This document shows positions 29,758-32,227 of a DNA stretch of 64,000 nucleotides, in pieces. The notes under the pieces are model-generated. The model did not search any database and was not told the DNA's origin. It saw only the letters and a program-made list of their open reading frames with translations. The stretch's first letter is position 1; every line of letters starts with the position of its first letter. The stretch lies in NCBI RefSeq assembly GCF_053078305.1, contig NZ_CP166879.1; one strand, 5' to 3'. Position numbers and translations under genes: made by a program.

Positions 29758-30393
29758 TTAGCGCGTTCGATGCGAAAGCACCTGCTGCTTATCCAGCTTT
29801 TGCACCAGCGGCTGCACCACTTTATCCCCATGCTGACCAAAGTATTGATACAGCGTATCGGACGCACTTTTGGTCAGCACCATAATCTCAATACGCCGAT
29901 TGCCCGCGCTTTGCGGATTTTTGGCATCCAGCAGCATCTGGTCCGCCATTGCGCTTACCTGCATCACTTTATCTTCCGGCATTCCGGCCTCTTCCAGCAC
30001 CCGACGAGCCGAAAGCGCGCGGTCACCCGAAAGGTTCCAGTTGTTGTAGATATTGTTTTTGTAGGCCATCGCATCGGTATGCCCGGTAATAATAATTTTA
30101 TTATCGAGCGAGTCGAACACTGGCGCTAACTCCACCAACAGCGTTTTAAAGAACGGCATAATCTGCGCGCTGCCGCGTTCGAACATATTGCGATTCTGGT
30201 CGTCTTTAATCAGCACGCGTAATCCCTGCGGGACAATCTCCATCTCCAGATTCGCTTCCATATGCGCATCACGGGCAATGGTGTTGATACTGGTTGCCAG
30301 CTCACCAAGCTCGGTGGCGGATTTCTTCTTCAGCAGCGCCGTTTTCTCGTTGACGTCGCGCGCTTTTTTCTCCGTCTCTTCCGGCACCGCCAC
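29758..30393 (-). pseudogene. lafU: Lateral flagellar motor protein LafU/MotB-like remnant (Flag-2 scar)
   Basis: C-terminal OmpA-like part with NRRIEI motif; the ORF runs in frame up to 30648 and overlaps lfhA, but the upstream part does not resemble a MotB N-terminus. Confidence 0.55.
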
Positions 30394-30487
30394 GGTGGCA
30401 GGTTTTGGCGGATGAGACGGGCTGATTTTATTTAACGGCGACAGCCCACCACCGTTAAAAATCGACTGCCCGTGCAGCGCGGCGATA

Positions 30488-32227
30488 ATGCTTTCACGCT
30501 CGGATTTACTGACGCTGTTGACAATCAACTTTATCGTCGTCACCAAAGGGGCCGAGCGTATTTCCGAGGTTTCTGCCCGCTTTACCCTGGACGCGATGCC
30601 CGGCAAACAGATGGCGATTGACGCCGACCTTAACGCCGGGTTGATCAACCAGGCGCAGGCGCAAACCCGGCGTAAAGATGTCGCCAGCGAGGCCGATTTC
30701 TACGGCGCGATGGACGGGGCATCAAAGTTTGTGCGCGGGGACGCCATCGCCGGGATGATGATTCTGGCGATCAACCTGATCGGCGGTGTCTGTATCGGGA
30801 TCTTCAAATACAACCTGAGCGCCGATGCTGCCTTCCAGCAATATGTGCTGATGACCATCGGCGACGGGCTGGTGGCACAGATCCCTTCCCTGCTGCTCTC
30901 CACCGCGGCGGCGATTATCGTCACCCGCGTCAGCGACAACGGCGATATCGCCCATGACGTGCGCCACCAGCTGCTGGCAAGCCCGTCGGTGCTCTACACC
31001 GCCACCGGGATTATGTTTGTGCTGGCGGTGGTGCCGGGAATGCCGCATCTGCCGTTTTTGCTGTTCAGCGCCCTGCTTGGCTTTACCGGCTGGCGGATGA
31101 GCAAACGCCCGCAGGCAGCGGAGGCGGAGGAGAAAAGTCTCGAAACGCTGACCCGCACCATCACCGAAACCAGCGAGCAACAGGTCAGTTGGGAAACGAT
31201 ACCGCTGATCGAGCCTATCAGTTTAAGCCTCGGTTACAAGCTGGTGGCGCTGGTGGACAAAGCCCAGGGCAACCCGCTCACCCAGCGTATTCGCGGCGTG
31301 CGACAGGTGATATCCGACGGCAACGGCGTGCTGCTGCCGGAGATCCGCATTCGGGAAAACTTCCGCCTTAAGCCCAGCCAGTACGCTATTTTCATCAACG
31401 GCATTAAGGCTGATGAAGCGGATATTCCGGCGGATAAACTGATGGCCCTGCCCTCCAGCGAAACCTACGGCGAGATTGACGGCGTGCTGGGGAACGACCC
31501 GGCGTACGGGATGCCGGTGACCTGGATCCAGGCGGCGCAGAAAGCGAAGGCGCTGAATATGGGGTATCAGGTGATCGACAGCGCCAGCGTGATTGCCACC
31601 CATGTGAACAAGATTGTCCGCAGCTATATTCCTGATTTGTTTAACTATGATGACATCACGCAGTTACACAATCGCCTGTCATCGATGGCACCGCGCCTGG
31701 CGGAAGATTTAAGCGCGGCGCTGAATTACAGCCAGTTGCTGAAAGTGTACCGCGCGCTGCTGACCGAAGGCGTTTCCCTGCGCGATATCGTCACCATCGC
31801 CACCGTGCTGGTCGCAAGTAGCGCGGTGACCAAAGATCATATTCTGCTGGCAGCCGATGTGCGCCTGGCGCTGCGGCGCAGCATTACCCATCCGTTTGTT
31901 CGCAAGCAGGAGCTGACGGTGTATACCCTGAATAATGAGCTGGAAAATCTGCTGACCAACGTGGTGAATCAGGCGCAACAGGGCGGCAAAGTGATGCTCG
32001 ACAGCGTGCCGGTTGACCCGAATATGCTCAACCAGTTCCAGAGTACGATGCCGCAGGTAAAAGAGCAGATGAAAGCGGCGGGGAAAGACCCGGTGCTGCT
32101 GGTGCCGCCGCAGTTGCGTCCTTTGCTGGCGCGCTACGCAAGGTTGTTTGCGCCGGGGCTGCATGTGCTGTCGTATAACGAAGTGCCGGATGAGCTGGAG
32201 TTGAAGATTATGGGGGCGCTGATGTAG
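30488..32227 (+). pseudogene. lfhA: FlhA-family flagellar export protein, 5'-truncated (Flag-2 remnant)
   Basis: 579 aa ORF matching the middle and C-terminal part of FlhA (...FVRGDAIAGMMILAINLIGG...); the N-terminal membrane segments are missing. Confidence 0.6.

Follow-up and report, generated by a model that had tools for sequence, protein, structure and literature searches.

The lafU–lfhA region of the window (the whole 64,000-nucleotide stretch of contig NZ_CP166879.1 that was analysed) is the published K-12-type Flag-2 scar. It is an ordinary feature of most E. coli chromosomes and is already known. Flag-2 has been described as the enterobacterial counterpart of the Laf systems of Vibrio parahaemolyticus and Aeromonas hydrophila, LafU corresponding to a lateral MotB and LfhA to a lateral FlhA (PMC6993521, PMC3032704). 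An earlier note on this DNA had described a Flag-2 locus reduced to lafU and lfhA remnants. We aligned the window with five intact Flag-2 loci (E1624, GmM062, FAH, 6883 and GN04171); the alignments confirmed this description and placed both breakpoints at the trinucleotide ATC. The K-12-type scar very probably goes back to a single deletion, its remnants being neutral and in frequent exchange with intact alleles.

The chromosomal setting of the scar was that of standard E. coli, with the orientation reversed relative to K-12. The lafU remnant is located directly upstream of dinB on the same strand, and the lfhA remnant reads toward the REP cluster and rayT. The sole match in an Rfam scan was naRNA4, which lay at the REP cluster, outside the region of the two remnants. 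The coordinates are collected in Table 1.

Table 1. Features of the Flag-2 scar and its surroundings in the window.
Feature	Position	Strand	Description
lafU-type ORF	29758-30648	(-)	296 aa
lafU remnant (K-12 mbhA/b0230 equivalent)	29758-30526	(-)	3' 83% of MotB-like stator gene
Deletion junction	30524-30526		3-bp microhomology ATC; single copy at the scar, at both endpoints in 5/5 intact loci
lfhA-type ORF	30488-32227	(+)	579 aa
lfhA remnant (K-12 fhiA/b0229 equivalent)	30524-32227	(+)	3' 81% of FlhA-like gene
Gene order across window			pepD, prfH/rtcB stumps, yafP, dinB, lafU'/lfhA' remnants, REP cluster, rayT, yafL, dinJ-yafQ, dpaA

The lafU remnant ends with a TAA stop codon at 29758-29760. 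BLAST aligned window positions 28632-30529 with positions 40090-38193 of the E1624 locus, and the protein alignment with intact LafU was ungapped at 98%, beginning at residue 53, just past the FADF motif. The intact protein carries MotB_plug (PF13677, aa 19-70) and OmpA domains in Pfam, whereas the minus-strand ORF matched the OmpA-like domain alone (PF00691, E 1.3e-14). Thus, of the parts of a MotB-type stator, the C-terminal OmpA-like, peptidoglycan-binding domain was kept, and the N-terminal transmembrane helix and plug, including the FADF Asp, were gone. The MotB-like C-terminal fragment of the earlier note was therefore right in its domain content, but the piece is not small, as residues 53-307 of the 307-aa lateral stator protein are retained. 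Having lost the membrane anchor and the proton-channel segment, the truncated product LafU' is predicted to be capable of neither membrane anchoring nor ion conduction. Since LafU' has neither an anchor nor a signal, export of its periplasmic domain would also be impossible. The NCBIfam LafU equivalog NF005273 was matched at profile positions 42-297 of 297 with 478 bits, against a cutoff of 383. PGAP names the stump as a protein because it scores above this cutoff. The resulting RefSeq "LafU" CDS of 261 aa begins at a GTG at 30541-30543, inside lfhA-derived sequence, and should be regarded by users as a pseudogene.

Of the 697 aa of the FlhA-like export-gate protein, the lfhA remnant codes for residues 131-697, and its TAG stop codon is located at 32225-32227. 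BLAST aligned window positions 30524-32367 with positions 2876-1033 of the E1624 locus. The Pfam FHIPEP profile was matched by the plus-strand ORF at positions 99-656 of 657 (E 4.6e-189) and by the intact protein at positions 1-656. Because the match starts at profile position 99, the plus-strand gene is 5'-truncated, as had been claimed, with residues 1-130 gone. The positions of hydrophobic segments in the intact N-terminal region suggest that LfhA' has lost TM1-3 and most of TM4. The TIGR01398 FlhA profile was matched at positions 118-677 of 678 with 591 bits, under its cutoff of 772, and the lfhA stump is flagged as a pseudogene.

The two ORFs are divergent and share 161 nt at 30488-30648, which agrees with the overlapping frames noted before. 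The lfhA frame extends upstream to an ATG at 30488, within antisense lafU, and the lafU frame extends upstream to a TTG at 30648, within antisense lfhA. The overlap is purely mechanical: each frame happens to stay open for a short way into the antisense sequence of its neighbor, and the homologous gene sequences themselves do not overlap. An overlapping or fused gene pair with biological meaning was ruled out, as homology ends at the junction on either side. We also considered that the region is a mis-assembly, or that the frames are chance ORFs with weak flagellar similarity. No supporting point was found for such an artefact, and its probability is negligible; it was rejected on the Pfam E-values of 1e-189 and 1e-14, the DNA identity of 95-98% and the contiguity of the region in 4071 genomes. 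By their identity to the intact loci and their Pfam E-values, the paired remnants stand far beyond chance.

At the junction, lafU-derived and lfhA-derived DNA meet at one common ATC. The fragments abut directly, with no intact flagellar gene or any other sequence between them. The microhomology forms part of an imperfect direct repeat about 15 nt long, with matches at 11 of 15 positions. In a four-way alignment, the switch from lfhA-type to lafU-type sequence occurred inside GTTGAT/TGTCAAC, which on the plus strand of the window corresponds to the ATC at 30524-30526. On either side, the 769 nt retained from lafU and the 1704 nt retained from lfhA were collinear and ungapped relative to the intact genes, with 94-98% identity. 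In the intact loci, a perfect 9-bp inverted repeat, TGACGCTGT-N9-ACAGCGTCA, holds the lafU endpoint in its loop, and a 12-bp palindrome, TGATGATCATCA, contains the lfhA endpoint. Just 0.64% of the cluster positions fall within inverted repeats whose stems reach 8 bp or more. The palindromic endpoints are consistent with structure-assisted illegitimate recombination, although this is a post hoc observation.

The extent of the missing DNA bears out the proposed deletion of a roughly 40-gene cluster. The E1624 Flag-2 locus is complete between rayT and dinB, where lfhA (697 aa) and lafU (307 aa) enclose 40 further genes. Relative to this locus, the window lacks 35,322 bp, which hold the 40 whole genes and the 5' ends of lafU and lfhA; the corresponding interval is 35,187 bp in GmM062 and 37,134 bp in FAH. 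The outward transcription and the missing 5' end of each remnant are expected, since lafU and lfhA both close an operon that reads outward. From this terminal position in the E1624 gene order, it follows that the native start codons and the operon promoters lay in the deleted DNA. Compared with a functional Flag-2 system, about 40 lfh, lfi, lfg and laf genes are absent and LfhA is not full-length. A scar ancestral at the species level, with Flag-2 purely inserted later, was ruled out, since the missing 5' parts of the stumps lie inside the cluster.

The distribution of the scar was surveyed by megablast of the 2.47-kb region against 5426 complete E. coli genomes. The region was contiguous in 4071 of them. 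About 1,340 genomes matched in two separate places, one for the lafU part and one for the lfhA part, the latter beginning at query position 758-767. A 63-nt junction probe was contiguous in 4076 of the 5426 genomes (75%), including O157:H7, UTI89 and K-12 derivatives. Among the genomes that spanned the region, no alternative type of lfhA-lafU junction was seen; matches either crossed this junction or ended at it. In a scan of one genome per species, the junction 21-mer occurred exactly in the E. albertii type strain NBRC 107761. Two MAG contigs, one with a Clostridiales and one with a Collinsella label, had it as well; at about 95.5% identity to the window, they are probably E. coli contamination.

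These counts are in line with earlier descriptions. Flag-2 was absent from 76 of 100 E. coli analysed, and stumps were present in all 76 (PMC6993521). Only fhiA (lfhA) and mbhA (lafU) are left in K-12 and B (PMC3032704). In an ST131 H22 strain, the remnants were given as "approximately 1700 bp" of lfhA and "769 bp" of lafU (PMC5369007), and these sizes agree with both of our measurements. Flag-2-negative E. albertii have the same region of about 2.5 kb, Flag-2 being present in about 25% of E. albertii genomes (PMC11420993). The scar is attributed to Ren et al. 2005, as that work is cited in PMC6993521, PMC3032704 and PMC11420993.

To look for decay of the remnants, we compared the 768-nt lafU and 1,704-nt lfhA segments of 11 scar-bearing and 5 intact genomes. 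No indel and no internal stop was found in any of these 16 sequences. The Nei-Gojobori pN/pS among scar alleles was 0.045 for lafU and 0.028 for lfhA, indistinguishable from the values between intact alleles (0.064 and 0.040), at a synonymous divergence of 0.11-0.18. Altogether, the reading covered only five intact alleles and about 20 with the scar; of 20 scar alleles, 19 were open over 822 codons. The exception was E. coli VTB96816v, which has an internal stop in lfhA'. This stop came from a set of four additional loci, each a haplotype of its own that differed from its nearest allele at 27-57 sites. In an evenly spaced sample of 60 rows, judged by equal query and subject spans, none of 45 scar alleles carried a net indel, at up to 6% divergence from the window. 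In the E. albertii type strain, lfhA' is frameshifted by a deletion of 22 nt. Given that the scar occurs in 75% of genomes, one might expect more decay of neutral remnants than was found, which counts against our main reading. Gene conversion from the Flag-1 flhA gene as the means by which lfhA' was preserved was ruled out, since similarity to flhA was only about 75% over 233 nt.

The good preservation raises the question of whether one or both truncated products are alive under purifying selection for a new role, with the cytoplasmic/TM5-8 part of LfhA and the peptidoglycan-binding part of LafU as the candidate parts. Such a role would account for pN/pS values as low as in intact alleles, for the open frames and lack of net indels, and for a lafU remnant that scores above the NCBIfam LafU cutoff and carries a protein annotation. 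However, both genes have lost their start codons and operon promoters, and a promoter and terminator scan of the remnants found nothing convincing, the best hits being weak promoter matches at 9 of 12 consensus positions. The periplasmic domain of LafU', which has no anchor or signal, would not be exportable. The stop in VTB96816v and the E. albertii frameshift are also unfavorable to a retained function. Among private mutations in the O157 and K-12 clonal groups, which are recent, two were synonymous and two nonsynonymous. This ratio fits neutrality, with p ~0.06 under an omega of 0.04, but the comparison is underpowered (n=4). Furthermore, the low pN/pS can be accounted for by haplotype sharing with intact alleles, and no selection is needed. 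A new role for the remnants is thus most unlikely, and the near absence of decay would be best explained by frequent exchange between scar and intact chromosomes rather than by function. The remnants may still resemble selected genes because of homologous exchange with intact alleles.

This sharing of haplotypes was seen across E. coli. The scar alleles were not monophyletic. The scar-bearing ST131 strain 2822 and the intact GN04171 differed at 0 of 2472 sites, and K-12 lfhA' differed from the intact E1624 at only 1 of 1704 sites. The lafU' segments of EC50 and B379 were identical to that of the intact GmM062 (0 of 768 for EC50). In comparison, two scar alleles could differ at up to 34 of 768 sites in lafU and 109 of 1704 in lfhA. 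The sharing was mosaic, and the pattern was unlike on the two sides of the junction; the differences between EC50 and B379, for example, were clustered at 30904-31405. Across 30408-30535, the same junction was found on at least five haplotypes. The SNP at 30535, only 9 nt from the junction, showed four of four combinations with the scar state. Linkage between the junction and SNPs was thus broken by 9 nt on the lfhA side and by 67 nt on the lafU side. Linkage broken so near the junction requires many recombination end-points very close by, which is a point against the exchange reading. E. albertii presented the same kind of mosaic as the E. coli scar and intact alleles. Near the junction, its lfhA side was 97-99% E. 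coli-like, and its lafU side was at 84-87% to within 22 nt.

One way to obtain this pattern would be recurrent deletion, in which the same junction formed many times at a preferred palindromic site and each scar haplotype came from its own intact progenitor, possibly aided by some activity close by, of which the adjacent RayT would be one example. The rare hairpin at the lafU endpoint and the palindrome at the lfhA endpoint would suit such a site. So would the fact that this one junction is flanked by five or more haplotypes, all of them matched by an intact twin and one pair without any difference, and the native-type lafU flank that reaches to within 22 nt of the E. albertii junction. Nevertheless, repeated precise deletion would be very poorly served by perfect homology of only 3 bp at a distance of 35 kb, and no second junction type was seen among the region-spanning genomes. 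By reading of the sequence, the endpoint hairpins are unlike REP elements. In addition, conversion tracts from an intact donor should end where homology ends, so that broken linkage at the junction would already be predicted by such tracts. The ST131 literature describes a Flag-2 "insertion" inside clade B during the 20th century, which amounts to a scar-to-intact conversion on a scar background; this phylogeny reads from scar to intact, opposite to the direction that recurrent deletion demands. Overall, we regard recurrent deletion as very unlikely.

In the preferred reading of a single deletion followed by exchange, one illegitimate recombination would have fused lafU to lfhA at an ATC present in each gene, the two sites being located within small palindromes. 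Among the roughly 35 kb lost in this event would be 40 lateral-flagellar genes; lafU and lfhA, as the terminal genes, would have been deprived of their 5' ends, their start codons and the promoters of their operons. The products would be two outward-facing headless pseudogenes, unable to build any part of a flagellum. The scar would be old, as it is common to E. albertii and 75% of E. coli, and scar and intact loci would persist side by side as a presence/absence polymorphism. The flanking remnants would continually be swapped between scar and intact chromosomes by homologous recombination. Such exchange is supported by the clustered EC50/B379 differences, the mosaic sharing on the two sides of the junction, the similar mosaic in E. 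albertii and the ST131 insertion. The whole cluster would be restorable by recombination as well, with the remnants and the neighboring genes serving as homology arms.

The scar itself is of little importance as a finding. Its wider interest is evolutionary and lies in the undecayed stumps and the trans-species junction, neither of which changes the identity of the feature. Taken together, the slight decay, the haplotype sharing and the junction in E. albertii suggest that presence and absence of the cluster have long coexisted as a polymorphism, with frequent exchange by recombination and, possibly, renewed gain of this 35-kb set of organelle genes. It is quite improbable that Flag-2 has been repeatedly lost at the palindromic site near rayT and regained in both E. 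coli and E. albertii, which would make the locus a slow genetic on/off switch. In practical terms, the scar or intact state is a handy lineage marker, for example within ST131.

Compared with known systems, the window is closest to the fhiA (lfhA, b0229)/mbhA (lafU, b0230) pair of K-12, which has the same genes in the same divergent orientation with dinB and rayT as neighbors, in the order dinB-lafU'-lfhA'-rayT. In an alignment with the K-12-derived CJ236, the junction was nucleotide-identical, and the 2.47 kb were 96.2% identical to the window. The window nonetheless has a haplotype of its own, the best match among the 5426 genomes being 98.1%, and yafN-yafO, located beside dinB in K-12, are absent from the window. 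The E. albertii truncated Flag-2 (PMC11420993) has the same junction 21-mer and the same remnant pair of about 2.5 kb. Its remnants are about 92% identical overall, and the type strain differs by the 22-nt frameshift in lfhA' and by a different left neighbor. The intact E. coli Flag-2, described in strain 042, shares the flanking chromosome with the window but has, between its two ATC sites, 35.2-37.1 kb of DNA that the window lacks. The Laf systems of Vibrio parahaemolyticus and Aeromonas hydrophila are complete and experimentally functional, whereas the window contains two gene stumps only.

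Among 5426 complete E. coli genomes, the top match to the 2.47 kb Flag-2 deletion scar (29758-32227) reached only 98.1%, and came from PapRG-06-5, a strain of baboon origin. The adjoining parts of the window had up to 99.2-99.9% identity to other strains. On this comparison of sequences, the window's chromosome is a mosaic without a representative in the collection. The features outside the scar are listed below.

Features flanking the scar (window positions)
Feature	Position	Strand	Remark
Island	1-19300		next to thrW/proA side
dinB stop / yafP start	28632-28638		overlapping, ATGA
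LexA-box-like sequence CACTGTATACTTTACCAGTG	29702-29721	-	between lafU stop and dinB start
Promoter-like match	29738-29711		overlapped by LexA-box-like sequence
First REP-element cluster	32228-32419		beside rayT
rayT	32420-32917	-	REP-element cluster on each side
Second REP-element cluster	32918-33093		beside rayT
Type VI secretion vgrG/PAAR/DUF4150/DUF2169 and Rhs-type effector region	41000-64000

On the island lie a contact-dependent inhibition system (cdiB/cdiA), a YfjI-family gene and the gene for a protein that is annotated as 'TOTE conflict system' and has a primase domain. The island matches STEC17-190 at 99.9% identity, but at least 80% of it was present in only 12 of the 5426 genomes. 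For the type VI secretion and Rhs region, no complete E. coli genome had at least 80% coverage in one place; the best reached 74% coverage at 99.5% identity.

An internal stop in the lfhA stump was found in only one of the 20 E. coli scar alleles read, that of VTB96816v (NZ_CP178650.1), at the equivalent of window position 31529, and RefSeq flags this stop too. In the E. albertii type strain NBRC 107761, which has the scar junction in common with the window, the stump is frameshifted by a 22-nt deletion (equivalent of 31457-31478); in the aligned stretch, the left neighbor of this scar was not dinB-like. The scar region was also seen on two metagenome-assembled contigs, SFGJ01000062.1 and JAIJJM010000815.1, labeled Clostridiales and Collinsella, with about 95.5% identity to the window. 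These are most likely E. coli contamination from binning.

Beyond the lfhA stop, rayT follows after only about 190 bp, and the second REP-element cluster contains an Rfam naRNA4 match (33016-33093, 65.8 bits). On the other side, the 70-bp gap from the lafU stop to the dinB start holds both the LexA-box-like sequence and the promoter-like match. The LexA-box-like sequence indicates that the lafU stump adjoins the SOS-regulated dinB control region.

Further along this side, no yafN-yafO toxin-antitoxin pair was found between dinB and yafP in the window, whereas in K-12 the pair sits between these two genes. Compared with E1624, a strain with an intact Flag-2 locus, the window has 752 bp fewer in this interval. 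The arrangement without the pair is possibly the state preceding its insertion. It is a common variant, because 6883 and GN04171, which also retain an intact Flag-2 locus, have the same dinB-yafP arrangement as the window.
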